Virus record (IMG/VR): IMGVR_UViG_3300013004_000041 | Span: 1-64,000 of that record | DNA: 64,000 nucleotides | Direction: 5' to 3' (one strand) | Origin: a virus | Part shown: in pieces, positions 633 to 57,505 of the stretch | Numbering within the stretch: the first letter of the stretch is position 1 | How the letters are laid out: every line of letters starts with the position of its first letter | Program-made: the position numbers and the translations under genes | The notes under the pieces: generated by a model | What the model saw: only the letters and a program-made list of their open reading frames with translations | Told to the model about the DNA's origin: nothing | Database searches by the model: none

Positions 633-1358
633 TTATATTGTTTTTAATCTATCCAGATAGTCTTTTATATCTTCTATTTGGTTAGGTTTATATTGTATCA
701 CGTTCTCAGGGAGCGTGTCAACTCTGCGGGGCTGTCCTCTAAATGTGTGAACATCAACTTCAAGGTTTTGGTCTCTTGGTGTATAAGATATGGCACCAAA
801 AATAGAACCGCACACAGCATCGGCAAGGTCTTTAGATTTTTTGCGTGGGTGATCGACCTTGTCATTTTTCATAATCTTAAGTTCTGTTAGTTCTTCAAAC
901 AAAAGTTCGATAGCAGGCATTACTAGTCTTTGCTCATACACAAGCATAGCCATGTCTTCGTAATGCTTCTTGGCTACAGAAACTGTTTCTGTTCTCATGC
1001 CTACCGCCTGCAATTCGTTCTGAATATCAAAGGACTGCCAACGGTCAAAAGTAACCAGCCCTATATTAAATCCAAGTCTGCGTAGATTTTGTATCCACTG
1101 CTTTACCTCTGAAAGATTGACTGGGCCTTCTACTTTTGGTTCCCACCATGCAACAGCATCGACAACGACAATAGGTGATATCTGTTCGTAGTCTTTAATT
1201 ACCTGAACATTAACCCACTTATCAACATGTGCAATTGCTACCGCACACTTATCGTGCTTCTGCGCTAAGTCAGCATGGACATAATAAACCTTATCTAGAT
1301 CTGGCTTAAAGTTTTCTTCAAATCTTCTGAATTGATCCAAAGGATTTCTGGCTGTCAT
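633..1358 (-). CDS. terL: Terminase large subunit, C-terminal RNase H-like nuclease part
   Basis: VHADLA, FDRWQS, DHP..SKDLADAV motifs; in frame with the upstream ATPase ORF across a single TAG at 1383-1385. Confidence 0.85.
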   Translation of the reverse strand: MTARNPLDQFRRFEENFKPDLDKVYYVHADLAQKHDKCAVAIAHVDKWVNVQVIKDYEQISPIVVVDAVAWWEPKVEGPVNLSEVKQWIQNLRRLGFNIGLVTFDRWQSFDIQNELQAVGMRTETVSVAKKHYEDMAMLVYEQRLVMPAIELLFEELTELKIMKNDKVDHPRKKSKDLADAVCGSIFGAISYTPRDQNLEVDVHTFRGQPRRVDTLPENVIQYKPNQIEDIKDYLDRLKTI

Positions 1359-1382
1359 ACATGCTCTAACTTTGTCTGCCTG

Positions 1383-2417
1383 CTAAAAGAAAGCATCAGA
1401 TGCATAAGTTGGAACACAAGCAAAACGCATCATAGCATCGCCAAGGTCTGTCATAAATGCAATCTTAAAATCATCGATCTTTCTTGTTGGGTTAACTTCC
1501 CATGTAGGTCTTTTTAATCCGAATACTCCAGGATATTTATATGATTTAATATGGTCTTCATCCCAAGATATTTCAAACCAGTTATCCTTATCATCTTCTG
1601 GAAGTAGCGGGTTAATAATAAATTTATGAGTCTTTGTTACTACTTCTTTGTCAGCAATTACTGCTTCATACCGCTCAGAAATAAAGTCTCCGTTATAACG
1701 AGGAAATGAAAGAAGAACTACCTTGCCAAGATCTGGGAAACGAGAATCGACTGATCCACGAAAGGCTTTATAAATATTATCAGCAGTCTTGCCTTGTTCA
1801 TTTCCAGTACCTACTTCTGTAGCAAAACCAGAAATTTCATCAAGTACTGCAAGTAAAAGATTTAAGCCCTCATGAGACTCACGCTCTGAGTGACCAGAAT
1901 AAACTGTAATTGATTTATCAAAACTAATTGAATCCACCTTTGCTTCATACTTACCAGCAAACCAAGGGGACCTTTCAATCTTAGACTTAAAACCTTTAAA
2001 GAAAACGTTCTTAGCCTGTTGAGCGTTGATAGCAACGTTAATTAAATCTATAGCGTCTCCAGATGGTTTTCCGAAGTATCTTGCAGGGTCTTTAAGACAA
2101 AGTAGTTTGTATACAATATAAGCACAAGCCACAGTAGAGGTGAAATCTTTACCGCTACCCTTGCCAAGTTGTAAAATGATTTCGTTTTTTGTATATTTTT
2201 CATAATACCTTGCCCCCTCTTCTTCCCCCATAATAAATTGTAAATCTTCTTTACGATAAATCTGACTCATTGCTTCTACTATGTCATATTGAATTGTGGA
2301 TAATCCTGGCTGCCCCAAATAATCTGGAGACTCTATAAAAGTTTTTGCATCTACTGGAGTCTCTTCAAAATGATTATCTTTAAGAGCCTCAAGAAAATCA
2401 TCAAACATCGTGGACAA
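1383..2417 (-). CDS. terL: Terminase large subunit, N-terminal ATPase part
   Basis: Walker A GKGSGKD, Walker B LAVLDE, coupling motif LLSFP. Confidence 0.9.
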   Translation of the reverse strand: MSTMFDDFLEALKDNHFEETPVDAKTFIESPDYLGQPGLSTIQYDIVEAMSQIYRKEDLQFIMGEEEGARYYEKYTKNEIILQLGKGSGKDFTSTVACAYIVYKLLCLKDPARYFGKPSGDAIDLINVAINAQQAKNVFFKGFKSKIERSPWFAGKYEAKVDSISFDKSITVYSGHSERESHEGLNLLLAVLDEISGFATEVGTGNEQGKTADNIYKAFRGSVDSRFPDLGKVVLLSFPRYNGDFISERYEAVIADKEVVTKTHKFIINPLLPEDDKDNWFEISWDEDHIKSYKYPGVFGLKRPTWEVNPTRKIDDFKIAFMTDLGDAMMRFACVPTYASDAFF

Positions 2418-2934
2418 TTGTAATCACTTCATCTTTCTTTGCAATATCAGAAAGTCTACGCATAATTTCATCACGAATTTGTGGATACTCTGATGCAATA
2501 TCACGAAGAATAGCCATAAGAACTTCCTGTTTCTTTTCTATCTGAACCATTTCTTCTGCTAATTCTTTATTTTCTAATAGACCAGCCTTTTGCAACATAT
2601 CAATTCTTTTAGATTCAATGTCCATAACTAGTTTAATTGCTTGAGTCTTTGCGCCTAAATTATTGGTCATTGACGCTTCATCAATAACCTCATATGATTT
2701 TGCAATTAATTTATTGTAATGTGTATCAGCAACTGCTAATGCTTCTTTTGCACGAGCACGAATTGCATCGTTTGCAGAAGCCATTACCTTCCACTCATTG
2801 ATGTGTTGAACAACACGAGTTCGTGGTATTGCTAAATCTTTAGATATCTTTGTTGCATCATTACCTTTGAGGTACTCTCCAACAACAACGTTAATTTCAT
2901 CAAGATGTTTAACTAAATCTTCTTCAGTCGACAT
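2401..2934 (-). CDS. Probable terminase small subunit (HTH plus coiled coil)
   Basis: HTH-like ATKISKDLAIPRTRV, helical C-terminus, overlaps TerL start; start taken at MSTEED. Confidence 0.55.
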   Translation of the reverse strand: MSTEEDLVKHLDEINVVVGEYLKGNDATKISKDLAIPRTRVVQHINEWKVMASANDAIRARAKEALAVADTHYNKLIAKSYEVIDEASMTNNLGAKTQAIKLVMDIESKRIDMLQKAGLLENKELAEEMVQIEKKQEVLMAILRDIASEYPQIRDEIMRRLSDIAKKDEVITIVHDV

Positions 2935-3259
2935 ATCTCTCCTTAGCAATCTTCAATAAAATAAGATACCCGATTAAATCATCAATATCATTATCTCCTG
3001 GATATTCTGTACCACGCATCATACGACTAAGTTTATCATCTATACGAACATGTAATTGCTCTCTAGGGTCTGCTTTGCTAAAAACACGAACTGGATTTAA
3101 GGCTGAGTCTCCATAGGCTATATTCTTTTTAATTAACATATGAGCAACCTCATGACAAGAATCCCATATTTCTTTTCCAGCAGAGGTTCCCACTGTTAAA
3201 AGATATAGGTCCTCACACTTAAAACGATTCATGTCTTCAAATACTCGATCTAAACTCAT
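2924..3259 (-). CDS. Nucleotide-modification-associated domain 1 (DUF1599-like, MazG-like helical) protein
   Basis: KKNxxYGDS...RIDDKLSR...DLIGY pattern; ATG at 3259 overlaps upstream stop (ATGA). Confidence 0.7.
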   Translation of the reverse strand: MSLDRVFEDMNRFKCEDLYLLTVGTSAGKEIWDSCHEVAHMLIKKNIAYGDSALNPVRVFSKADPREQLHVRIDDKLSRMMRGTEYPGDNDIDDLIGYLILLKIAKERYVD

Positions 3260-3411
3260 CTCTTTGATTTCCTTAATCCAAATTTTGCCAAATATACATA
3301 AATAGTTTCCACGCTTACCCCGCATTCTTTGGCTATATCTTCAGGAGTTTTTTTGTCCATGTGATATCTTTTTTTTAGCCATAGTTCGTTTGTATATAGT
3401 TTACCAGCCAT
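3256..3411 (-). CDS. Small HTH DNA-binding protein (51 aa, not in ORF track)
   Basis: Own translation MAGKLYTNELWLKKRYHMDKKTPEDIAKECGVSVETIYVYLAKFGLRKSKR; fills the intergenic gap with coupled stop/start. Confidence 0.75.
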   Translation of the reverse strand: MAGKLYTNELWLKKRYHMDKKTPEDIAKECGVSVETIYVYLAKFGLRKSKR

Positions 3412-4260: not shown

Positions 4261-5089
4261 TTTCTAATGGCTCCAAGGATTTTATTTTAATAGTTCCATC
4301 CCCAGCATCAGCGCACATTTTCTGTAAAGGACATGTCTTACAAATTTTTGAATTAGATCTGTAATTCTTCGCAGGCAAAGTTTTATTTTTCCATGCCTCA
4401 CGAACTGTTCTCATCCAGTCAAACGCTTGATCTACCCACCGAATGTAATGACCGTTAACCTCTATAGGAAACAAAAGAAGTTCATGATTATTTTTATTTT
4501 CATAAATCAAAACACCTTTTTGCTTCTTAAGAATTTTCATATAAATAAGCAATTGCATTAAATGCCCTGCCTTTGGCTTGGAATGATTTTTTCTATATTC
4601 AAAGCCGTCACTCTGAGCGGTTTTAATTTCTATAACCATCTCTTCGTTATTCCAATTAATTATTCCGTCACCATAACCAAATATTGGAGGATCAGAATGT
4701 GTAATTTTGAACTCTGTGGTATCTTTTTCTTCTTTATATTTTTCAAAATGTTTTTCATCTAAGAATTTTTTTGCTATCCCAGAATCAAGCAATGCCTTTT
4801 GAATTCTTTCATGAGACAATGATCCGTTGCTCATATTGGCTACTGCAAAAGCATCAGAGAAATCTTCAAAATCTCCTCCCTCAAATGCAAGATACCAATA
4901 TCTTGCACACTCTCCGTGACCATAAACTAAAGTAGAGGGGGCAAATGTCTTCTTTTTTTGATTCTTAGTTTCTCTACCTACCAGGTATCCAGACTCTATC
5001 TTTTCTTTCATCCCACTAATATCAAATGAATTAAAGAATTCTTTAGTCTCTGTCTTAATCATAACTTCTTTTAATAAATTTTTTGTCAT
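4247..5089 (-). CDS. Cas4-like PD-(D/E)XK exonuclease with Fe-S Cys motif
   Basis: N-terminal CARY, GxxxHE, GDG...EIKT, QxxxY, C-terminal CKTCPLQKMC; start taken at MTKNLL. Confidence 0.8.
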   Translation of the reverse strand: MTKNLLKEVMIKTETKEFFNSFDISGMKEKIESGYLVGRETKNQKKKTFAPSTLVYGHGECARYWYLAFEGGDFEDFSDAFAVANMSNGSLSHERIQKALLDSGIAKKFLDEKHFEKYKEEKDTTEFKITHSDPPIFGYGDGIINWNNEEMVIEIKTAQSDGFEYRKNHSKPKAGHLMQLLIYMKILKKQKGVLIYENKNNHELLLFPIEVNGHYIRWVDQAFDWMRTVREAWKNKTLPAKNYRSNSKICKTCPLQKMCADAGDGTIKIKSLEPLENEEL

Positions 5090-38467: not shown

Positions 38468-39595
38468 TTATGCATCTGCTGCAGCATCTGCCCACGCAAT
38501 TGCGTCTTCTTCTTCCCATTGAATACCGAAGCGAACGAACACAGTATATTCAATTGTGTCCTTCTTAGCAACATATTCACGGTTGACGACGATATCACGC
38601 TGGAAGCCCCATACACGGTTCTGTGGGAATGTCAAATCGACATATCCTTCAGGGTAGTAAGGAACTTCTTGGACATCAATTCCGAGGACACGAGTTGTAC
38701 GTGCTCCACCGAATGTCTGGCCTTGACCATCAAGGTATGCCTGTGTATTTGCATAGGTATTACCATTCTTACCAAGTGCTTCAGCGATTGCATCAGACAA
38801 TGTACCGTTATTCTTAACGATACCTGCGAATGCATCTGTACCTGCGTAGAACTTAAGATTGTTCTTAAGTGCACGGTACTTGCGTGGCATAGCAAGGATA
38901 ATTTCCTGCATCTTCTCTGGAGTCCATGCATTGTCAGCAACGGTAATTGCTGCTTCATGTGAGTCTCCATTGTCCTTGTGCTTCTTGATGAAGCCAGACA
39001 TAATTGAAAGGAATGGCGCTGTTGCACCATCACCATTGATAGCAAGATCCTCAATATCGTTAGCAAAAGCATTGGTCATCAAGCGAACTAGATGATCTTC
39101 CAATGCACCTCCTTCGACATTGTCTTCAAGTGCTTCAGCAGAAACTTCCCAATCAAGACGAATCTTCTTGGTTGTTAGTTCTACCTTTGAGAATGTAGCA
39201 CCAGTGTTTGTGTAATTACCAACTGCCTGAGCAGCGGCACGAATAACACGCTCACCAACATTAATCTTCTCTAATTCCATACTGTTTGCTCGCATAGTCA
39301 CACGACGACCATCTTGAGCAAGAATGGTTGCATCCCAAACATAATCGATAAAACGACGTGCTTGTTCAGGACGTAAAATTCCGCTTGCAGCATCACCCGA
39401 AGGATTTACGGCATTAGGACCAGTGGTTACTCCAAAGTTAGCATTTGGGATGTTACCAAGTGTGTCTGCACCTGGATCTGTTACACCACCAACACCACCT
39501 GAAGCAAAAGCGCCTTGACCTTGATAAAGACCTGGTGCTGTTCCGCCTAGTTCGCCAGTTTCTCCTGGCTGGTTTTTCTTAATCTCTTCCGACAT
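38468..39595 (-). CDS. Major capsid protein (HK97 fold)
   Basis: GILRPEQARRFID, EALEDNVEG, DIEDLAING; GGAGGTG RBS; follows protease. Confidence 0.92.
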   Translation of the reverse strand: MSEEIKKNQPGETGELGGTAPGLYQGQGAFASGGVGGVTDPGADTLGNIPNANFGVTTGPNAVNPSGDAASGILRPEQARRFIDYVWDATILAQDGRRVTMRANSMELEKINVGERVIRAAAQAVGNYTNTGATFSKVELTTKKIRLDWEVSAEALEDNVEGGALEDHLVRLMTNAFANDIEDLAINGDGATAPFLSIMSGFIKKHKDNGDSHEAAITVADNAWTPEKMQEIILAMPRKYRALKNNLKFYAGTDAFAGIVKNNGTLSDAIAEALGKNGNTYANTQAYLDGQGQTFGGARTTRVLGIDVQEVPYYPEGYVDLTFPQNRVWGFQRDIVVNREYVAKKDTIEYTVFVRFGIQWEEEDAIAWADAAADA

Positions 39596-39618
39596 ATTGT
39601 CACCTCCTAAGTGATTAC

Positions 39619-40953
39619 TTAATTAAATAAGTCGGCTGTTTTGAGGAAACGTCCGCCCCATAGGGATTTTTCAACCATTTCTGGTTGTTCCTGTACGATC
39701 TCGCCTAGATCGCCAGACTTTCGGAAAGCAGTATCTGCTTCTACTGCGTCTACTCTCTTTCCAAATTTATTAACTTGTTCTGTTGTTGCAGCAATGTCTT
39801 TGGCGACTGCATCAAGTGAACTTTTTACTGTTTCTGTATCAACCTTTGTAGACTTAAGCATTTCTACTTCTGCCTGCAAAGACTTTACAGTTTCAACTAA
39901 ATCGCTAAAGGCTGATGTGATTGTATTCTTGATTTCTGCAACTGCGTCAACAATTGCTTCATCTGATTTAGATACTTCTGTAGCAACCTCTGCTGCTGGT
40001 GCTTCAACTGATTCCTCAGCCTTTGCAACTTCTTCTGCTGCAGCCTCTTCAGACTTTTCAACAGTTTCTTCTGCTACGACAGTCTCTTCAGACTTTTCAG
40101 TAACTTCTGCAACAGGAGCCTCAACTACGGCATCTGCCTCTGGAGCGATTTCTTCTGACTTAATAACTTCGACTGAATCATCAGCCTTTGTCTTTTTTGC
40201 CATAGGATCTTCCTCCTTGTTAATCTTAGCATCAATGCCTTTAGCACTATCTACTAAGAATTTGATTATATCCATTTTTTCATTATCCGTTTTTTCAACG
40301 AACCCTATATTTTTCATTTCGTTTCCAGTAGTTGGACTAACGACTGTTTCTTCTTCTGATACCATAACTAATCCAGACTCTTCATCATAAAAAACATTTT
40401 CAAGTGCTACATCTGCACCCTTAACAATTTCAACACCGTCAACTTTTTCTACATGCATAATATTTGCAAATTGATTTGCTGGAGAATCTACAAGAGATAA
40501 CTCTACAAGATCATAATCTTTAATAATTCTAATTGTGGAATCTGACTTCTCATCATAACCATCATCCCACTTATTCATACGACCACCAATAGAAAATCCT
40601 GTTAGTGTACCGTCCAAAACTTTTTCCCATGTATCTTGTGCACCTTTTGAAACATATGCTGAAACAAAAACTCCAGAATAAAATTTCTTTGTCTCTGGAT
40701 CGAAATATCTATCTTCTTTAAAATTAACCATCTTGCCAACTGCTAGTGGTTGATGCATTTCACGAATGTTTCCACGAAACTTTGAAAAGGCTTTCATGGA
40801 TGCATCTGATGTAACAATATCTCCTTGCTTATCAAGGTTATCAAGGGATGCAAATCCTGAGACGATACGTCTCTCTTTATCTACCTTCGCAAAAGGAAGG
40901 GAAAGGCGAACATTCTCGCCCTCTGTATTCCAATGGGCTTTTGATATAGTCAT
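39619..40953 (-). CDS. Prohead protease fused to acidic scaffold
   Basis: GFAS..NLDKQGD, REMH, GFSIGG, ELSLVDSPAN; Glu/Ala-rich C-terminus. Confidence 0.9.
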   Translation of the reverse strand: MTISKAHWNTEGENVRLSLPFAKVDKERRIVSGFASLDNLDKQGDIVTSDASMKAFSKFRGNIREMHQPLAVGKMVNFKEDRYFDPETKKFYSGVFVSAYVSKGAQDTWEKVLDGTLTGFSIGGRMNKWDDGYDEKSDSTIRIIKDYDLVELSLVDSPANQFANIMHVEKVDGVEIVKGADVALENVFYDEESGLVMVSEEETVVSPTTGNEMKNIGFVEKTDNEKMDIIKFLVDSAKGIDAKINKEEDPMAKKTKADDSVEVIKSEEIAPEADAVVEAPVAEVTEKSEETVVAEETVEKSEEAAAEEVAKAEESVEAPAAEVATEVSKSDEAIVDAVAEIKNTITSAFSDLVETVKSLQAEVEMLKSTKVDTETVKSSLDAVAKDIAATTEQVNKFGKRVDAVEADTAFRKSGDLGEIVQEQPEMVEKSLWGGRFLKTADLFN

Positions 40954-40986
40954 ACTAGTATATATTATAGAGCCTTTTTATATAAA

Positions 40987-41018
40987 TGTGGAAAAACTGT
41001 GGAAAACTATGTGGATGA
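40987..41018. promoter_or_regulatory. Three tandem DnaA-box-like 9-mers
   Basis: TGTGGAAAA (40987), TGTGGAAAA (40998), TGTGGATGA (41010); two match TTWTNCACA exactly on the minus strand. Confidence 0.45.
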
Positions 41019-42608
41019 ACGGCCTTCACCCTTTGGGTTTCTACCACTAATTGTGGCAGCACCGTCAGACTGATTGTTCATTCGTTCTCCGTCCCTTGCC
41101 CTATCAGCATTATCATTTGCTGCTTGTTCTGGCTTAGGATTAAAAGGCTCGTCTCCTCCTTCCCTTTGTGGGAGGCCAAGGATTGATCTAGCCTCATTTG
41201 GAAGCATAACCTGTGTCTTTATATATCTTTCTACAATCTGAGATTGAGCAATTTCGTCTGTTAAAGTTAGTTCATTAAACTTTAATACTAGAACGTCCGT
41301 CTTTTCTTTAACTATCTTATTTATAATTTTTTCTAATTCTCTTTGTGCTGGTCTTGCAACCTGCTCTTTAAATGTACGGTCTTGAGCCATCGCTGCTGCT
41401 ATTGAGCCAGCGTCACCTCCACCAATCTTTGACAATGGAACTTGGTGAGCAATTAAGACATCGTCTCTATTTTGTTTGCGATATCTTTCAAATGATCCTT
41501 CTTGGACACCATTTTCAATCGGTTCCATTTTAAACTCAACCTTGTTGGTATCTGAATCACCAGGGAGTGGGATATAAAGCGTTCTATGAGATTGACCCTT
41601 AAGTCCCGTTTGCAAAAATCTAAACATTTTATCTTCTGCGTCAGCCGAAAGTTTAGCACCCTTTAACGTCACAACATAACGAGGGACAGCCTTATTGCTA
41701 AAGTAGTCAATGTTATATTGCGACGCTAACTGGTCTCCATGGAGCGATGTTATTGCCGACATGATATCTGGAACACCATAAAAAGTATTTAAAGGCGAAT
41801 ACTGTTTAAAGTGAATAATCTCGTTAGGTCTTGGATCGTCCGTAACTGGATTATTGTTTTTTGCTCCAAAATTTCTAAAGTATACAACTTTACTTCCAAT
41901 GATTTGAACATACCCATCACGTAATCTACGAACACGCATTGTGGTTGCAGGAATGTGTCCGATGTATCCAATTTCTCCACGAGTTGTTCTACCAACTTCT
42001 AAGAAACCGTTTCCTACTGCCTGAACATCTGTATATACTTTCATCATTGTTGTTGTAAAAGAATCATCATCATTTAATGATTCAATCCATTCATGCATTT
42101 CAATTTTTGCACGTTCAATTCTATTTCTTGCTCTTCCTACTTGATCTTTATCTTTATTAGATTCAAGTCGTAACATTGTGCTTGGAGATACTTCAAAGTC
42201 ATACCCAAGTCCTACAATATTTTCTACCTTTGCGTCAATCGCTGCGTGGTTTGCAAAAGATGTATCATAATAATTTGCAAGTTCGTAAACATTCCATGGT
42301 GGTGTGATTACATCAAATAGTCCGTATCCATTTCTGTATACCGTTCCAGGATTAATTTCTTTTGACTTTGCATCTCCTAAGCCATGCTGCTCTGCTCTTG
42401 CACTATCAATATATCCCTGACTTGGGTTATTAGCAGTTGCTTTTTCAACAACTCTGTTAGTTCTTCTTTTAAAATTATTATCAATACCAGAATAGGACTT
42501 TAATTCTGTCCAAGACTTGTTAAATGGATCTGCAGATTTAAATGCATCGTTTTGATTGATTGGCTCATCAATTCTTGCGCCGAGCACATATTCTCTTTCT
42601 TCTGACAT
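41007..42608 (-). CDS. Portal protein
   Basis: GNGFLEV, HIPATTMR, NEIIHF, FYGVP, YFSNKAVP, NEARSILG. Confidence 0.92.
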   Translation of the reverse strand: MSEEREYVLGARIDEPINQNDAFKSADPFNKSWTELKSYSGIDNNFKRRTNRVVEKATANNPSQGYIDSARAEQHGLGDAKSKEINPGTVYRNGYGLFDVITPPWNVYELANYYDTSFANHAAIDAKVENIVGLGYDFEVSPSTMLRLESNKDKDQVGRARNRIERAKIEMHEWIESLNDDDSFTTTMMKVYTDVQAVGNGFLEVGRTTRGEIGYIGHIPATTMRVRRLRDGYVQIIGSKVVYFRNFGAKNNNPVTDDPRPNEIIHFKQYSPLNTFYGVPDIMSAITSLHGDQLASQYNIDYFSNKAVPRYVVTLKGAKLSADAEDKMFRFLQTGLKGQSHRTLYIPLPGDSDTNKVEFKMEPIENGVQEGSFERYRKQNRDDVLIAHQVPLSKIGGGDAGSIAAAMAQDRTFKEQVARPAQRELEKIINKIVKEKTDVLVLKFNELTLTDEIAQSQIVERYIKTQVMLPNEARSILGLPQREGGDEPFNPKPEQAANDNADRARDGERMNNQSDGAATISGRNPKGEGRSST

Positions 42609-48894: not shown

Positions 48895-49908
48895 TTAAGA
48901 ATTAAAAATGCTTTGATCTATCCAAGTTTTTGGAGTTAGATCATTTACAATTTCCACTGGCAAATAAAAATTAAATTCTTGTGGGCCACGGCTTCTTACA
49001 AATTCAATCATTCTAGTTAATGTTGTATCTAGTGGAGTTGAAGGATTATAATCTAAAAGCATCCTTGCTTTATCTGCTGAACAGTTAGCAAACCTTACTT
49101 CCTTTGGTCTATCTGGAAGATAGATTGGATCTAAGTCAAATTCTAATAAGTTTGCTATTCTAGATGCCAATTCATTAATTGTTATAAAGTTTTGATCTGG
49201 TCCAAGATTTACTACTTCTCCATCTGCAACATCTGTTTCCACTATTTTTGCAATAGGATCTACAACATCCTGAATGTCTGAAAAACATCTCATCTGTGAA
49301 CCATTACCGTATATGATTGGCTGTCTTCCTTGAAGCATTCTATTTATCATAATACCCGCAACATTTCTAAAAGGGTCTGTATAGACCTGTCCAGGGCCTA
49401 TGATGTTGTGGGGTACAGTTATAGTAAAACTAATGCCGTGAACCTCTGAAAGGACCCTCAGAGACTGTTCAAAGGCTACTTTAGCGACTCCATAAGGATC
49501 CTGTGGTTTTGGAGTCATATTTTCCGTAAATGGCAAAGAGTCCTGGGTTCCGTATCTAGCCATACTGGAGGTAAATATAAACTTTTTTACATTAGACTGT
49601 ATTGCACATTTTAGTACATTCATAGATATTCCAAAGGTGTTATCAGTAATTGTCTTGGGAGAAAATATAGACAAACCCTCATGTGGTGTACATGCTGCGT
49701 GAATTACTATATCTATATCAGCAAAATCTTCTGCTGTAAGATCATTGCAGTCTTTTTCAATAAACTTAATATTTCCTGGAACATTGTCTTTGTACCCCCC
49801 AATAAAATTATCAACACCGATAACCTTATGCTTTATAGAAAGTCTATTTGCTATGTTACTACCAACTAACCCAGCAACTCCAGTTATTAAAATATTACTC
49901 ATAGCCAT
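48895..49908 (-). CDS. NAD-dependent nucleotide-sugar epimerase/dehydratase (SDR)
   Basis: GVAGLVG, TSS, YGVAK, NIIGP, RCFSDIQD. Confidence 0.92.
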   Translation of the reverse strand: MAMSNILITGVAGLVGSNIANRLSIKHKVIGVDNFIGGYKDNVPGNIKFIEKDCNDLTAEDFADIDIVIHAACTPHEGLSIFSPKTITDNTFGISMNVLKCAIQSNVKKFIFTSSMARYGTQDSLPFTENMTPKPQDPYGVAKVAFEQSLRVLSEVHGISFTITVPHNIIGPGQVYTDPFRNVAGIMINRMLQGRQPIIYGNGSQMRCFSDIQDVVDPIAKIVETDVADGEVVNLGPDQNFITINELASRIANLLEFDLDPIYLPDRPKEVRFANCSADKARMLLDYNPSTPLDTTLTRMIEFVRSRGPQEFNFYLPVEIVNDLTPKTWIDQSIFNS

Positions 49909-51043
49909 TACCTAAAAAATAATCAAAACTATTTTTTGCTAACTGCTCATGCCTTTTGCCATAACCAATATTTGAAAAAATAATATCTGATAACTGCTCT
50001 AATATATTTTTTTCAAAATCTGTAATATCTTTAGACATGTTTAAAATATTTATAAAGTCTAACTCTATATCTGATAAATAATAACTGCTCCAATTTTTAT
50101 CATTTCCTTCAAAGAAATCTTTATCAATTTGTAGATACTTTATAACTTTATTCAATTTATCATATTGCTTGGTTTTTATATAAATAGCAGCAATTCTTAA
50201 ATACAAAAACATTTTTTGATATTCGCTAATATCTGTATTCATTAAAGAATCATAAACTGTTTTTGTTTGTTCTGGGTTAAATAATGTATAGGCTAAACTA
50301 ACCAAATATTGATCAGGGATTTCAACATTAACTGAAGATTCTACGTCTTCTATAAAAGCGCTAAGTTCTTTATATATTAAGTTAAAATTATCCTTGTCAT
50401 CTTTTTCATAATATGAAAGAGCAAGGGACATTAGGCCAGATAACATTATTTGATTATTTCTGTATCTTTTAATCTTGCCAACATAATTTAAAAATGAATT
50501 TATATATAATGTTTCTCTATTTTCAAATCTTTCATAATCTCCTGGCATATCTCTAACTTCTACATCTAAAAAAGTTCTTGTCATTTCTTCTGGGAAATAC
50601 CCATATTTTTTAATCTCTGGCCTATATCCGAACCAAAAGCATCCCTGTCTTTTGTGAATTCTAAATAATTTTTTAACAACATTTCCATCTGCCAAACCTT
50701 CAGATGACATTAAGTTACAAACTAAAATTTCTTTATCATCATTATGATCAATTACTTTTGCTTTCCAGTCTTTTGTAATCATGTGCTGATCTATGTCTAA
50801 ATTAATACAATAATCATATTCTAAAGGAATTAAAGAAAGTGCTGTATTTTTTGCATGTGTTTCATCCCATGGATTAAATGCTGCATTTATTACGTTTATG
50901 CCGAAAGACTTTGCGATTTCTATAGTTTTATCTGTGGATCCAGTATCAAGATATAAAATATAGTCTGCATCTTTTATGCCCTCATACCATCCAGCAATAT
51001 TAGATTCTTCGTTTTTACCAACACCATAAGCAGCAATTTTCAT
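49895..51043 (-). CDS. GT2 glycosyltransferase with helical (TPR-like) C-terminus
   Basis: KNEE, DTGSTD, LDID; start at MKIAAY coupled to upstream TAATG. Confidence 0.85.
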   Translation of the reverse strand: MKIAAYGVGKNEESNIAGWYEGIKDADYILYLDTGSTDKTIEIAKSFGINVINAAFNPWDETHAKNTALSLIPLEYDYCINLDIDQHMITKDWKAKVIDHNDDKEILVCNLMSSEGLADGNVVKKLFRIHKRQGCFWFGYRPEIKKYGYFPEEMTRTFLDVEVRDMPGDYERFENRETLYINSFLNYVGKIKRYRNNQIMLSGLMSLALSYYEKDDKDNFNLIYKELSAFIEDVESSVNVEIPDQYLVSLAYTLFNPEQTKTVYDSLMNTDISEYQKMFLYLRIAAIYIKTKQYDKLNKVIKYLQIDKDFFEGNDKNWSSYYLSDIELDFINILNMSKDITDFEKNILEQLSDIIFSNIGYGKRHEQLAKNSFDYFLGNGYE

Positions 51044-51168
51044 TATGGCTTTATCCTTTTTGCCCCGCATCTAGTACATGTTTGATAGGTTCTCATTGTA
51101 TATGGGCATGTTACTTCATCCTTAGATGTTTTATGACCTTTAATATTACACAATATTTTTTTAATCAT
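51043..51168 (-). CDS. Small Cys/His zinc-binding protein (41 aa, DUF1660-like; not in ORF track)
   Basis: Own translation MIKKILCNIKGHKTSKDEVTCPYTMRTYQTCTRCGAKRIKP; AAGGAAG RBS; overlaps both neighbours. Confidence 0.7.
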   Translation of the reverse strand: MIKKILCNIKGHKTSKDEVTCPYTMRTYQTCTRCGAKRIKP

Positions 51169-52340: not shown

Positions 52341-53102
52341 CTATCTATATTTTTTTCTCACCCAACGGTGCTTTTTGTAGAACCCATAAAGATAATTTCT
52401 TTTTCTTTCTACGTCCCAGATTCCTTGATTTTGTAAACTATGATCTATCTTTTTTTCCCAATTAGCACGTTTAATTGGAATAAACTGAATAATAGGTGTT
52501 CCCTTTTTAATTGTACCTTCAAAATCTTTTCTTAAAAAGAATGTAACTACATTTCCACTAAACCATCTGTCTGAATCTTGAACTGCAGTCATAGTAAAGA
52601 ATGGAAGGTCATATCTATTAGTTGGATGAGTAATCATTAAAGACCATCCATCTGGTAATTTGCATCCCCATCTCATGTCCCATAAAAAGTGTATAGGATA
52701 GCATCCTGATGGTACTGGGATCTCTAAATGGCCACGCATTTCGATTGGTCTTGGCTCGTCATCTCCCCAAGTAACTTCTGGCTTATTTGGATCATCTGTT
52801 TTTTTAACATGAACATCACATGCAAGTGGTAACTGATATCCCATAGTTAGGGCATCAAAAAATGGCATACAGTGCTTAATGCTAATTGCAGCAGAGTCTG
52901 CTCCTTTATTCCAAGTGACACTAAGATCGTCTATATTGTCATGTAATTGGTATAAGGGTCTATCCTTCCACCAGTCTGGTAAATTGTCAATTGCTGCTAC
53001 TGGTTCTGGTGTAAACTGATAAGCAGTTGAAGCCCAGAACTCTGCCGTAAGATTTTCCATTTCTGGAACATCTTTATACATATCCTCTAACTTATCTCCC
53101 AT
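52341..53102 (-). CDS. DUF6065-like protein, paralog 2
   Basis: PDWW, IKHCMPFFDA..GY, HPTNR, KKGTPIIQFIPIKR. Confidence 0.6.
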   Translation of the reverse strand: MGDKLEDMYKDVPEMENLTAEFWASTAYQFTPEPVAAIDNLPDWWKDRPLYQLHDNIDDLSVTWNKGADSAAISIKHCMPFFDALTMGYQLPLACDVHVKKTDDPNKPEVTWGDDEPRPIEMRGHLEIPVPSGCYPIHFLWDMRWGCKLPDGWSLMITHPTNRYDLPFFTMTAVQDSDRWFSGNVVTFFLRKDFEGTIKKGTPIIQFIPIKRANWEKKIDHSLQNQGIWDVERKRNYLYGFYKKHRWVRKKYR

Positions 53103-53815
53103 TACTTAAACACCTTCTTTTCCCACATAAAATTTTTATAAGATCCGCCAAACTTAGCCCTTAGTTTATACGAAATTGCTTTAAGAGCATGCATATCTGG
53201 CTTTTCTAATATTTCAGATCTAAACTCTTCTCTTTTATAAGGAATACATTGTACTAGGGGAGTGCCCTTTTCAATCGTACCCTTAAATCCTCTTTTTACT
53301 AAAAGAGAGAATGGTCCATCTGAGATGTACATATCGGTATCAATTATAGCAGGAACAATAACAAAAGGCAAATCATCATGAAATGATGGATGGATAAACA
53401 TAGTACTATATCCTTTTTCAGTTCCAATTACCCACATAGGGTGTACTCTAAAAATATCATCTACATATAAATTTTTATCGTATGTCCATCCATCTATCTG
53501 CTCTCTGCTGTGCTTACCAATTACATCATTATGTATTGGATGTACTTGAACTTCAAGGCTTTCTCCAGTTGCATCAACATAAACATCACATGGAAACTTT
53601 AACATGTAACCCGTAACCATTTGATCTAAAATTCCTGGACACTTTTTAATTGTTTCATTATATTGTCCACCAATTAATTTTCTTTCTCCCCCAACAAAAG
53701 GCTCTGTCTTTCTCCACCAGTGAGGTATATTCTTAGACATTGGTTCTGGATGTGGCGCATATTCAAAAGTAAACTCATCTTTTGGAATAAATTTAATATT
53801 TTTTTGTTTTGACAT
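53102..53815 (-). CDS. DUF6065-like protein, paralog 1
   Basis: PHWW, IKKCPGILD...GY, HPSFH, EKGTPLVQCIPYKR. Confidence 0.6.
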   Translation of the reverse strand: MSKQKNIKFIPKDEFTFEYAPHPEPMSKNIPHWWRKTEPFVGGERKLIGGQYNETIKKCPGILDQMVTGYMLKFPCDVYVDATGESLEVQVHPIHNDVIGKHSREQIDGWTYDKNLYVDDIFRVHPMWVIGTEKGYSTMFIHPSFHDDLPFVIVPAIIDTDMYISDGPFSLLVKRGFKGTIEKGTPLVQCIPYKREEFRSEILEKPDMHALKAISYKLRAKFGGSYKNFMWEKKVFK

Positions 53816-54596: not shown

Positions 54597-55643
54597 TTAG
54601 TTATCTTTCGTATCGAAAACCAACATTGTTTCTGTAAAGAAGTTGTCGTACGGCTCACAGTTAATAGAGATAACATTGTCAATATAGTTTAATTCTGTTA
54701 CGCTTGTAACTGCAATCCAGTCTTGATTAGAATAATCATAAACTTCATAAGATGTATCTATATCTCTTGAAAGAACAAACTTATAAACATCATCTTTTCT
54801 TGCAAAGATCCAGTGTGTTGGAGAGAAAAGGCTTCCGTTGATGTTGTAAATCTTATCAACAGTCTTTTCTTGTATCGCAACCACCTGAGTTTCAACAACT
54901 TCGATCCCGTCGAATGTTGAAGATGTCCATACTGCTGGATCAAATTGAGAAGTTCCTACTTCTGCGATATTTAGTCCTAGAAGTGTATCTCCAACTTGTA
55001 AAGAACCTGCAGTTACAATTCCTCCTGGAGTTCTAACACCAGTTGATGGTGATAATGAGAAGTAAGATCCGAAACCACCGTATCCTGCTGGAGCATGGCT
55101 AAAACCACCATAACCATGACCAAAGTTATGGTAGAAGCCACCATATGAGTGTGAGAAGTTGTGGTAGAACCCACCATATGAGTGTGAGAAGTTGTGGTAG
55201 AACCCACCATATGAGTGTGAGAAGTTGTGGTAGAAGCCATGGTAGAAACCTGCGTAATGGCTAAATGAGTGGTAGAAGCCATGGTAGAAACCAGCATAGT
55301 GGCTGAAACCAGCATAGTGGCTGAAGCCTGCGTAGTGACTGAAACCAGCATAGTGGCTGAAACCAGCATAGTGGCTGAAGCCTGCGTAGTGGCTGAAACC
55401 TGGATAAACATACTGATAGTAATTAATAGCAACGCTGGTACCAATATTAACTACGGTACCAGCGGTCACTGATTGTGTATTTATCTTTTGATCTAAGTTA
55501 GCATCAGAGGTAGTAGTGCTTGTCTCTGTATATGTTAACCCCTTTAATGTAAGTTCTGCCTGATACTGACTTCTTGTCATACCAGATAGGCTAGGTACAG
55601 AAACCTTTCTTATACCTCTATCACCAGTTCTTTGTAGTGCCAT
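54597..55643 (-). CDS. PASTA-like domain + His/Tyr/Phe/Gly repeat region + C-terminal Hint (intein/hedgehog-like) domain
   Basis: VPSLSGMT..Q..AGT.V PASTA pattern (aa 14-78); repeats aa 80-195; Hint S(196)LSPSTGV..LQVGD, SPTH, VISINCEPYDNFF..MLVFD. Confidence 0.8.
   Translation of the reverse strand: MALQRTGDRGIRKVSVPSLSGMTRSQYQAELTLKGLTYTETSTTTSDANLDQKINTQSVTAGTVVNIGTSVAINYYQYVYPGFSHYAGFSHYAGFSHYAGFSHYAGFSHYAGFSHYAGFYHGFYHSFSHYAGFYHGFYHNFSHSYGGFYHNFSHSYGGFYHNFSHSYGGFYHNFGHGYGGFSHAPAGYGGFGSYFSLSPSTGVRTPGGIVTAGSLQVGDTLLGLNIAEVGTSQFDPAVWTSSTFDGIEVVETQVVAIQEKTVDKIYNINGSLFSPTHWIFARKDDVYKFVLSRDIDTSYEVYDYSNQDWIAVTSVTELNYIDNVISINCEPYDNFFTETMLVFDTKDN
55059..55406 (-). repeat. Coding tandem repeats: 18-nt YAGFSH units and 33-nt FYHNFSHSYGG units
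   Basis: Six GFSH units with synonymous variation in a 54-nt period; CCACCATATGAGTGTGAGAAGTTGTGGTAGAA three times at about 55138-55236. Confidence 0.95.
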
Positions 55644-55687: not shown

Positions 55688-57505
55688 TTATGAAGAGGCA
55701 AGGTCTCCAACAACAACGAAGGTGTTGGCTGCTCTCTTAATAATTGTCGCTCCAGACCAAGTAGTTCTTGTCTTAGCGGTTGGTGTTCCATTTACAGTTA
55801 CACCTGATCCACCAGCAATTGTTACCTGTCCTGCAGCAACTTGAAGAACTTCAAGTCTTTGACCCACTGGCCAGAAAGAGTTATCTGCAGGAATTGTAAA
55901 TGTTCCTGCTGAAGCAGAGTTATACTCAATAATCATATTGACATCGCTTGATACGAATGTATATGCGCCTGTCTTTTGAGCAATGTCTGCCGTCTTATTA
56001 GCCTTTGTATCAAGTGTTGTTGAAAGTGCTGTTCCGTTTAATGTTACAGAAGATGATGCTGGAAGAGCAACTGTTCCTGTAAATGTTGGAGATGCTAACG
56101 GAGCCTTTAATGCAAGTGCATTAGTTACTGTAGTAGCATAATTTGCATCGTCTCCAAGTGCTGCAGCAAGTTCATCAAGAGTATTTAATGCTCCTGGCGC
56201 TGCTGCAATAACTGCATCAACTTCAGCCTTTACGAATGCTGTTGTAGCAATTTGAGTAGTGTTTGTGCCTACTGAAGCAGTTGGAGCAGTTGGTGTTCCA
56301 GTTAATGCTGGTGAAGCCAACGGTGCCTTTGATGAAACTGCAGTATCTGTATATGTGTTTGCAGATGCTATTGCATTTGTTCCTGCTGTGTCAGCATATG
56401 TCTTTGTAGCAAGTGCTGATGTGTCTGCAATACCATGAACAGATGTTGTTGCTGCTTCGTGTGTATCAAGATCTGAGACAACAGTTGCTAAAGTACCTTC
56501 TGCTGTATCAAGATCTCCCTGAAGTGTAGAAATATTTGATTCTGCAGTATTTACATCAGACTGTAGGGTAGAGACATCAGACTGTAGGGTAGAAACATCT
56601 CCCTGTAAGCCAGTGATGCTTACTTCTGCTGTATCGAGGTCTCCCTGGATAGCAGAGATATTTGACTCTGCGGTTCCAAGGCTTGTATTAATTGTTCCAA
56701 TGTCTGTTTCTGCATCAGTAACTCTTGAAGTTAAAGATGATAGATCAGATGTAGTAGTAGAAATTGTTCCTTCTGCTGCATCTACTCTTGTGTCTAATGA
56801 TGCAATTGCAGATTCTGCATTATCAACATCAGTTTGTAATGTTGTTATGTTTCCTTCTGCTGTAGAAAGATTAGTCTGCAATGACCCAACATCAGTCTGT
56901 AGTGTTCCAATGTTTCCTTCTGCTGTATTTAAATCTGTTTGCAGATTTGTAATATTTGTTTCTGCTGTTGCTAAATCGCTTGCAGTATCTGATAAAGTTG
57001 CTGCATCTGCATACCCCTGAGACTTAACCCAAAATGTTGTTGCAATTCTTGTTGAATTTTCGTTAGAGTCTGGGTTTGGTGCTGCTGGTGATCCAAAGAA
57101 TGTTGGGGATGTCAATGGAGCCTTTGTAGATAAAGCATTAATAATCGTATTTCCAAAAGATGAATCTTCGTCAATTGCTGTTGCAATCTCGCTCAAAGTA
57201 TCTAATAGGGCTGGTGCTCCATCAATAATATTTCCAAGTTGTGACATTGGAATATTTCCTGTGCTATCAAGAGTTGCAACGCCGTTTGCTGATGCCTTCT
57301 CTGTTAACAAAATATAATCGTCTAAATTACCACCTAGGTCTTCTAGGTTCTTAAAGTAGGAGAGATCTTCCCAATGGTTAACACCGTCACCAATTTTAAA
57401 TTGGTTTGTGTCAGTTTCAAATCCGATTTCTCCTGCTGCCAAAATTGGATCTGCATCTGTCCATTGCTGTGCAGTTCCTCTGCGTTGCTGCATTCTTGTT
57501 GCCAT
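55688..57505 (-). CDS. Tail fibre protein (Mtd-like N-terminus, coiled-coil stalk)
   Basis: QQRRGT..W...PILAAGEIGFETDT; heptad repeats TAEGNITTLQTD; APLASP.FTG repeats; VVVGDL terminus. Confidence 0.8.
   Translation of the reverse strand: MATRMQQRRGTAQQWTDADPILAAGEIGFETDTNQFKIGDGVNHWEDLSYFKNLEDLGGNLDDYILLTEKASANGVATLDSTGNIPMSQLGNIIDGAPALLDTLSEIATAIDEDSSFGNTIINALSTKAPLTSPTFFGSPAAPNPDSNENSTRIATTFWVKSQGYADAATLSDTASDLATAETNITNLQTDLNTAEGNIGTLQTDVGSLQTNLSTAEGNITTLQTDVDNAESAIASLDTRVDAAEGTISTTTSDLSSLTSRVTDAETDIGTINTSLGTAESNISAIQGDLDTAEVSITGLQGDVSTLQSDVSTLQSDVNTAESNISTLQGDLDTAEGTLATVVSDLDTHEAATTSVHGIADTSALATKTYADTAGTNAIASANTYTDTAVSSKAPLASPALTGTPTAPTASVGTNTTQIATTAFVKAEVDAVIAAAPGALNTLDELAAALGDDANYATTVTNALALKAPLASPTFTGTVALPASSSVTLNGTALSTTLDTKANKTADIAQKTGAYTFVSSDVNMIIEYNSASAGTFTIPADNSFWPVGQRLEVLQVAAGQVTIAGGSGVTVNGTPTAKTRTTWSGATIIKRAANTFVVVGDLASS

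Follow-up and report, generated by a model that had tools for sequence, protein, structure and literature searches.

In the first 64 kb of the IMG/VR virus record IMGVR_UViG_3300013004_000041 (64,000 nucleotides, hereafter the window), the minus-strand gene at 54597..55643 encoded a protein of 348 aa followed by a stop codon, in which an N-terminal PASTA domain was followed by His/aromatic repeats and a C-terminal Hint domain. Residues 196-348 formed a genuine Hint domain with Ser at position 1, an S-x-x-H motif in block B and Phe-Asp (F-D) replacing His-Asn (H-N). Judging from its sequence and modelled structure, it was likely (with a probability of roughly 0.65) that this domain was a catalytically competent autoprocessing module similar to the bacterial intein-like (BIL) domains, and that an acyl shift at F195/S196 released the PASTA-repeat part. 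The whole record was 81 kb long with an estimated completeness of 75% and a G+C content of about 35%.

The assignment to the Hint fold relied on structural and profile comparisons. The original prediction, made from the nucleotide sequence alone, had claimed a Hint domain in the minus-strand stretch 54600-55058, corresponding to residues 196-348 (the last 153) of the protein, and had called for a structure prediction against known Hint folds. An AlphaFold2 (AF2) model of residues 190-348 was built from the family alignment and agreed with this claim. Namely, the predicted local distance difference test score (pLDDT) was 92.9 and the predicted template modelling score was 0.88. Foldseek returned 45 matches from the PDB at E<=0.001, and all among the matches listed were inteins, BIL or hedgehog domains. 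With VIA-align, 83 of 997 chains reached Z>=5, and the entries for inteins, BIL and hedgehog domains with Z scores of 15-19 numbered more than 40. The top match was the Tetrahymena BIL2 domain (Z 19.3, root-mean-square deviation 1.7 A, 138 aligned residues). Similar values were obtained for the Ssp DnaB mini-intein (Z 18.2, 2.0 A, 136 residues), the C. thermocellum BIL domain (Z 17.8, 1.5 A, 130 residues) and hedgehog (Z 17.3, 1.9 A, 129 residues).

The same alignments placed the putative catalytic residues in register with those of known Hint domains. VIA-align put S196 (model residue 7) on residue 1 of the Mtu RecA, Ssp DnaE and PI-PfuI inteins as well as on Cys258 of hedgehog, and D344 (model residue 155) on the last residue of these three inteins. 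Moreover, among the PDB sequences, a sequence profile of 86 relatives reached E 1.1e-8 against 2lwy, the C. thermocellum BIL domain, and E 7.7e-8 against the gp41-1 intein. In the profile alignment, the family motif S-x-x-H fell on TFDH, and the terminal ...LvhD fell on ...LVHN and ...LTHN of 2lwy and gp41-1. A domain-centred alignment was used for this search; a profile of full-length proteins was swamped by matches to fibronectin type III (FN3) domains.

All parts of the gene described here were on the minus strand. The Hint domain proper, supported by AF2, Foldseek, VIA-align and the profile match to 2lwy, comprised residues 196-344 (54612..55058). The motifs named in the original prediction, SLSPSTGVRTPGG..AGSLQVGD, FSPTHW and VISINCEPYDNFFTETMLVFD, were all found in the translation where they had been reported, and residue 196 was indeed Ser. 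The predicted scissile junction F195/S196 was encoded at 55056..55061, with the codon of the position-1 nucleophile S196 at 55056-55058 and that of F195 at 55059-55061. Block B, equivalent to the intein TxxH, was S274-P-T-H277 (54813..54824), which HMMER aligned onto TFDH of 2lwy. Blocks F and G, aligned by HMMER to gp41-1 and 2lwy, extended from V324 to D344 (54612..54674). Thus, the Ser nucleophile, the TxxH-like block B and the absence of a terminal His-Asn that had been read from the letters were recovered as S196, S274..H277 and F343-D344 by both structural and profile alignment, and the original observation was correct in all its details. As had also been noted, the protein ended four residues past ...MLVFD with T345-K-D-N348 and a stop codon (54600..54611), and this tail was acidic at position +3.

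The domain belonged to a large family. HMMER was run against 1.84 billion representatives and found 131 relatives (clusters at 50% identity) at E<=1e-3, including 74 at E<=1e-10. Additionally, viral contigs yielded 121 candidate stretches, of which 90 encoded a relative. To count conservation, database proteins and the open reading frames (ORFs) of 80 viral loci were pooled, identical sequences were removed, and the rest were aligned to the hidden Markov model of the domain. This gave 207 domain matches, and the 168 that were complete at both ends were the basis of the counts. Pairwise identity among the family domains was only 25-45%.

Position 1 was occupied by Ser in 139 domains, Cys in 27 and Trp in 2, so that a Ser or Cys nucleophile was present in 166 of the 168. 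In block B, His was kept in 164 domains and Ser/Thr in 163. Neither of the Trp1 members had this His (L and Y were found instead), meaning that the catalytic residues were lost together. T201 was kept in 136 of the 139 Ser1-class domains. The two residues at the His-Asn position differed between the classes. The 27 Cys1 domains had H-N in 26 cases and H-S in one, whereas the Ser1 class had F-D in 78, H-D in 33, Y-D in 10, Y-N in 7, K-D in 3, other pairs in 8 and H-N in none. The domain was nearly always terminal, with a median tail of 5 aa (20 aa or shorter in 162 of 168). Among the 80 domains with F-D, the class of the window protein itself, residue +1 was Arg in 34, Thr in 20, Ser in 7 and Ala in 7, while Asp was present at +3 in 70. 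The conservation of Asp344 and Asp347 suggested that the tail belonged to the active-site region, and Asp344 was probably part of the active site.

It has been described that the position-1 nucleophile of a Hint domain, together with the block-B Thr and His, performs an N-S or N-O acyl shift (passages of PMC4031507). By analogy, Ser196 would attack the carbonyl of F195 after folding, with assistance from S274 and H277 of block B, and the resulting N-to-O acyl shift would turn the F195-S196 peptide bond into an ester. The ester could then be resolved by water or by another nucleophile. Hydrolysis would be the default outcome, and transfer would be an interesting minority case. The expected products would be a 195-aa part with the PASTA domain and the His/aromatic repeats, whose new C-terminus would be F195, and the Hint domain (~17 kDa) in free form. 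Asp344, at the place of the intein Asn, might serve as a general base, either for Ser, which is the poorer nucleophile, or for the nucleophile that resolves the ester. Cleavage at F195/S196 was the best-supported activity because the acyl-shift residues were the most conserved, the domain was at the extreme C-terminus, and neither a sterol-recognition region nor a conserved C-extein was present. The further idea that the activated N-terminal part might be cyclised, or ligated to another protein or a small molecule, was speculative and drew only on the analogy with the Tetrahymena BIL2 domain.

Immediately upstream of the Hint-ended gene was a fibre gene of 605 aa (55688..57505, minus strand) with an Mtd_N-type N-terminus (Pfam E 3.4e-14) and coiled/fibre repeats, which matched PHROG tail-fibre families. 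The C-terminal domain of this fibre, conserved and ~100 aa long (within residues 470-605; 55691-56098, minus strand), was shared by the fibre genes preceding Hint genes and ended in ...TPGLKLRxQWSSATLFKRAxxTWVVxGDLSA. A fibre gene directly preceded the Hint gene in all of the 80 loci that had an upstream same-strand relative of a gene of the window, and a relative of the 605-aa fibre was present in 70 of 80 Hint loci. The gene order in the 80 loci was conserved. Namely, small baseplate/fibre-connector-like genes were followed by a 543-aa fibre-like gene, a 151-aa gene, the fibre, the Hint gene, a phrog_7084 gene (present in 63 of 80) and ribonucleotide reductase. A 258-aa gene that was located between the fibre gene and phrog_7084 in the window was found in just 5 of the 80 loci.

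The fibre C-terminal domain had at least 586 relatives in viral contigs, and we inspected the gene after the fibre in the best 80 of these at least 586 loci. A complete gene with a Hint ending was found in 25, one with a Cys-rich tail in 31, one ending in aromatic/Pro/Gly repeats in 11 and one with another ending in a single locus. The gene ran off the locus in 3 cases, and in 9 there was no ORF of at least 100 aa within the set limits. The 68 complete partners constituted one family, in which a short basic N-terminus preceded an FN3 or PASTA domain and then repeats of extreme aromatic content, e.g., PFFPPFFP and FGFTPFG. The Hint domain was therefore one of three alternative, interchangeable endings of this fibre-partner family (Hint 25, Cys-rich 31 and none 11 of 68), a context absent from the original prediction. 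Since 11 of the 68 complete partners ended directly in aromatic repeats, this type of N-extein can evidently stand alone. One such partner without a cap ended in ...GFSPSY, and the junction sequence of Hint-type relatives was ...FGPSYSEY|S. Taken together, a self-removing or self-activating C-terminal domain was the most economical explanation because the acyl-shift residues were kept, those for C-terminal cleavage were replaced, there was no real C-extein, and a Hint-less form of the N-extein existed.

The N-terminal part of the window protein was built similarly. The PASTA domain comprised residues 14-73 (55425..55604, minus strand; Pfam PF03793, E 5.9e-7, 29.8 bits with a cut-off of 23.2), and it also matched the C-terminal region of the NCBIfam model PknB_PASTA_kin (E 1.6e-4). 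It was followed by low-complexity His/aromatic/Gly repeats at residues ~81-195 (55059..55403, minus strand) with units such as GFSHYA and GFYHNFSHSYG and the end ...GSYF195. These ~115 residues made up the C-terminal part of the N-extein. The stretch consisted only of G/F/S/H/Y/A/N/P-type residues with F-x-H motifs. At the DNA level, tandem repeats had periods of 18/54 nt at 55287-55400 and 33 nt at 55123-55239, with 87-98% matches. In the Ser1-type relatives, the 60 aa preceding the Hint domain contained a median of 30% F/Y/W/H (135 sequences). It was the composition of the repeats rather than their sequence that was conserved, since the relatives carried FGFTP or PFFPP repeats instead. The N-exteins varied as well, with FN3 found in 25 and PASTA in 22 of the 86 relatives.

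Several observations weighed against autoprocessing. First, several of the usual assisting residues of inteins were replaced: the block-F Asp (D107 of gp41-1) by Ser326, the block-F His by Asp333 and the penultimate His by Phe343, with F343-D344 at the His-Asn position in the HMMER alignment to gp41-1 and 2lwy. Second, the profile evidence from the single protein was below the thresholds. The window protein alone scored 13.3 bits (E 0.074) against the Pfam family Intein_splicing PF14890, which has a cut-off of 35.8, and it was under every Pfam Hint threshold. Third, the Hint domain was dispensable for the basic role of the fibre-partner family, as 31 of 68 partners had a Cys-rich end and 11 had no cap. 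Finally, the association of Ser1 with the loss of His-Asn was not independent evidence of mechanistic coupling, as it represented essentially one evolutionary transition. Namely, in a FastTree phylogeny computed from the domain after excluding the three trait columns, nearly all Ser1 sequences grouped into a single clade, and 3 Fitch changes were counted for position 1. The correlation between the position-1 residue and the ending was accordingly dropped as a proof of coupling, because the tree showed one historical switch and no repeated co-variation.

Among the other explanations, the one that survived best, although we regarded it as rather unlikely, was that the domain was a non-catalytic folded knob. 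It would stay attached to the C-terminal end of the very hydrophobic repeat stalk and be used there for anchoring, for docking or as a solubility cap. This agreed with the replaced assisting residues and with the two members that kept the fold without a nucleophile or the block-B His. It also agreed with the frequent presence of another small module, the Cys-rich end, at the same C-terminal place in 31 of 68 partners. The viral genome itself provided such a case just outside the window. A second cassette at 65226-67332 of the record (1226-3332 of the locus excised around it, minus strand) encoded a 209-aa fibre with the same C-terminal domain and, after it, a 489-aa protein with a weak PASTA match (E 3.4e-4), long (PPVT)n tracts, and Cys-rich modules and end, with no Hint domain. 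On the other hand, an inert knob would leave the conservation pattern unexplained. Among domains of only 25-45% identity, the best-kept positions were the nucleophile (166 of 168) and the His (164) and Ser/Thr (163) of block B, and the nucleophile and this His were lost jointly.

Compared with simple release of the N-terminal part, a more elaborate outcome would be transfer of the F195 ester to a specific acceptor, such as a Lys in the C-terminal domain of the preceding fibre or a molecule of the host envelope. This would leave the adhesin-like part covalently attached through its C-terminal end. The Hint gene was directly after a fibre gene in all 80 of the loci defined above, and in the fibre C-terminal domain Lys was invariant at column K121 and almost so at K109 (39 sequences). 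The binding-type PASTA or FN3 domain was N-terminal and the Hint domain at the opposite end, which would be a suitable geometry for a C-terminal tether. The Tetrahymena BIL2 domain has been reported to form a Lys isopeptide with the C-terminus of its N-extein (passages of PMC8616854). Nevertheless, the adjacency would be equally explained by a simple non-covalent partnership, Hint-less partners followed the same kind of fibre in 43 of 68 cases, and the Z score of BIL2 was within about 1 of those of ordinary mini-inteins. We thus considered such transfer quite improbable. In a broader form, which we judged distinctly unlikely, the Hint domain would be a single-use, ATP-independent ligase passing the F195 ester of the PASTA/aromatic-repeat adhesin to a nucleophile on the phage's own fibre (e.g., the invariant Lys) or on the host envelope. 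It was at the same level of doubt that the fibres would carry covalently tethered, exchangeable binding modules, with the sister Cys-rich endings as a disulfide-based alternative.

Asp-dependent C-terminal cleavage or true splicing was very improbable. Here, Asp344 would cyclise and Thr345 would act as the +1 nucleophile, joining ...YF195 to TKDN. In Hint domains, C-terminal cleavage depends on the terminal Asn, which acts together with two His residues (the penultimate one and that of block F), and splicing requires Cys, Ser or Thr at +1 (passages of PMC4031507). According to the same review passages, inteins ending in Asp, Gln or Glu can also cyclise and splice. Asp was present at the Asn position in most Ser1 members (F-D 78, H-D 33 and Y-D 10 of 139), the window protein had Thr at +1, and the H-D subclade had Ser/Thr there in 29 of 33 cases. 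However, in the F-D class Ser/Thr was found at +1 in just 27 of 80 domains and Arg in 34, which made splicing unlikely as the family function. Moreover, the tail was conserved as a part of the domain (+3 Asp in 70 of 80), the positions of the His residues that assist cyclisation in the passages of PMC4031507 were held by Asp333 and Phe343, and adding four residues to a repeat protein had no evident use. The description of the domain as non-splicing in the original prediction agreed with splicing being unlikely as the family function, but it was too categorical for this protein given that Asp344 and Thr345 were both present and that Asp can cyclise in some inteins according to PMC4031507. A class-3 intein with C329 as the block-F nucleophile was ruled out, as this residue was three positions past the block-F Asp position (S326) and position 1 was Ser.

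Returning to autoprocessing at F195/S196, we compared the domain with known Hint systems. The C. thermocellum BIL domain had the same fold and was the best match of the sequence profile. It was also similar in that BIL domains are found in variable, non-conserved carrier proteins (passages of PMC7765530), as with the varying N-exteins here, and lack a homing endonuclease. The difference was that the window domain had a Ser nucleophile (usually Cys in BIL domains) and an F-D end, and that it invariably closed phage fibre-partner proteins, followed by only ~5 aa. B-type BIL domains have all intein motifs except the C-terminal one and cleave at their own N-terminus (passages of PMC7765530). This motif pattern fitted the window domain, yet the corresponding profile, Hint_2 (PF13403), had no match to it at E<=1. 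The A-type BIL domains (PT-HINT, PF07591) have a conserved C-terminal His-Asn, whereas the window domain had F-D and, again, no match at E<=1. Among the 86 relatives, Pfam matches at E<=0.01 were found for Intein_splicing in 20 (best 8e-8), PT-HINT in 4 and Hint_2 in 1. Fold and motifs thus placed the domain in the Hint superfamily, but by profile it fitted none of the existing Pfam Hint families. As far as motifs can tell, it would work most like a B-type BIL, and its distant Cys1/H-N cousins looked like A-type BIL domains.

The top structural match, BIL2 of Tetrahymena thermophila BUBL1 (PDB 6tmm and 6y75, Foldseek E 1.4e-6), is reported to hand the C-terminus of its N-extein to a lysine (passages of PMC8616854). 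In contrast to the window domain, it has Cys1 and Asn143 (the entry title reads C1A-N143A), is located between two ubiquitin-like domains and is eukaryotic, with 13% sequence identity. In hedgehog (1at0), a Hint domain also ends a two-part protein, cleaves its own N-terminus by an acyl shift and frees the N-terminal part. However, hedgehog has a Cys nucleophile and needs a sterol-recognition region after the Hint domain for cholesterol transfer (passages of PMC7765530). The window protein ended four residues after its Hint domain with no such region, and thus it was not a Hog domain. The mini-inteins Ssp DnaB (1mi8, Z 18.0) and the phage-like gp41-1 (6qaz, Z 16.9) had the same fold, alignable blocks A, B, F and G and a position-1 nucleophile, but here F-D replaced H-N and the +1 nucleophile was not conserved (27 of 80). 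The domain was not an intein since it did not interrupt a conserved host protein and only four residues followed, so that there was no real C-extein. With respect to the ending of class-1 inteins, the window protein had F343-D344 followed by T345, where Asp is permitted according to passages of PMC4031507 and Ser/Thr at +1 was limited to the 27 of 80 in the F-D class. The class-3 inteins lack a nucleophile at position 1 and have a Cys at position 4 of block F instead, and the window domain showed neither feature. C329 was conserved in 125 of the 139 Ser1-class domains but was not at the class-3 nucleophile position.

Terminal Hint domains were also found in cultured jumbo phages. The window protein itself gave nothing at E<=1e-5 in a tblastn search of 50,697 phage records, and the relatives from cultured phages surfaced only when two other family members were used as queries (24.7-33.3% identity among the matches listed). 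These were gp108 of Dickeya phage AD1, annotated as a 'virion structural protein', and BN7874_136 of Phage NCTB, a 'putative phage tail protein, contains intein domain'. They were similar to the window protein in having a fibrous N-terminal part (collagen-like G-x-y), a terminal Hint domain, a tail of 7-10 aa and a location in tail gene clusters. The difference was that they had Cys1 and H-N (...SGC|IVFG... and ...LAHN|TDIV...). Our searches found no characterisation of these proteins either, and Erwinia jumbo phages had homologues as well. Additionally, the Phage NCTB locus encoded a stand-alone 153-aa 'intein domain protein' ending in ...LVHNKVD (4480-4941) and, from 6305 onward, a 'large intein domain protein'. 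Since they adjoined the Hint-ended tail protein, Hint modules were multiplied in this tail cluster. The window protein also matched a PHROG family of 'virion structural protein' (E 1.6e-7). UniProt-derived viral models of uncultured phages matched the modelled domain with template modelling scores of 0.88-0.91 and were annotated as 'Hint domain containing protein', 'PASTA_pknB domain containing protein' and 'Fibronectin type III'.

A functional parallel is known from other phage structural proteins. The Peptidase S74-type C-terminal intramolecular chaperones of tail spikes and fibres remove themselves by autoproteolysis at a conserved Ser after assembly, but their fold and mechanism are unrelated to those of the Hint domain. 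The analysis showed no match to this type, although no search was aimed at it.

The cassettes also varied within and between genomes. Some contigs had a second, shorter cassette upstream with a fibre of ~270 aa and a Hint protein of ~305 aa. The two cassettes of one contig (loci L008 and L011/L056) had near-identical repeat and Hint parts but different FN3 N-termini. In locus L004, the PASTA part kept 75% identity and the Hint domain only 45%. Since the Hint and repeat parts were near-identical behind different N-termini, while L004 kept the PASTA part but not the Hint domain, the parts of the cassette appeared to be shuffled. At the sequence level, we considered these loci to be evidence of module shuffling or gene conversion. 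The genome of the window itself had a single copy of the Hint domain.

Several other features of the window were observed. Two phrog_7084 paralogues, 24% identical, were arranged in tandem at 52341-53815. Neither a notable Pfam or NCBIfam family nor a significant PDB sequence match was found for them, and an AF2 model (pLDDT 87.9) gave only weak matches to dUTPase-like folds (best E 8.6e-4, query-normalised template modelling score 0.25-0.42). The possibility that they were partners in the Hint chemistry was set aside as nothing linked them to it. Downstream of the fibre module (48895-51070), there were genes resembling a glycosyltransferase (PHROG 13126) and a nucleotide-sugar epimerase (PHROG 540), which co-occurred with the Hint gene in 4 and 3 of 80 loci, respectively. 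The portal, protease and capsid genes (38468-42608) had 65-69% DNA identity to Streptomyces phages of ~130 kb (127 of 129 matching records). This similarity, despite the G+C content of 35%, together with the PASTA domains hinted at an actinobacterial or otherwise Gram-positive host.

The known Hint domains comprise inteins, the processing domains of hedgehog proteins and a small number of bacterial BIL domains, and their natural non-splicing roles are poorly understood. The domain described here was already annotated automatically in databases. Our literature search found no study of it and no paper on C-terminal Hint domains in the fibre or virion proteins of phages; where Hint was mentioned in phage papers (PMC3556154, PMC5259590 and PMC7412058), the relevant passages concerned terminase inteins. 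We identified a large clade (131 clusters at 50% identity and 90 places in viral contigs) that was tied to the C-terminus of fibre-partner proteins and had a shifted chemistry, with a Ser nucleophile, Asp for Asn and no penultimate His. The interchangeable Hint, Cys-rich and cap-less endings on one scaffold constituted a natural experiment on the role of the ending. If the domain cleaves, it would represent a maturation step for a widespread class of fibre accessories in environmental phages, and mechanistic studies would gain a naturally occurring Ser/Asp variant of the Hint domain. If the cargo is transferred, it would be a phage counterpart of the cholesterol transfer by hedgehog or of the conjugation by BIL2, and a possible tool for protein ligation.

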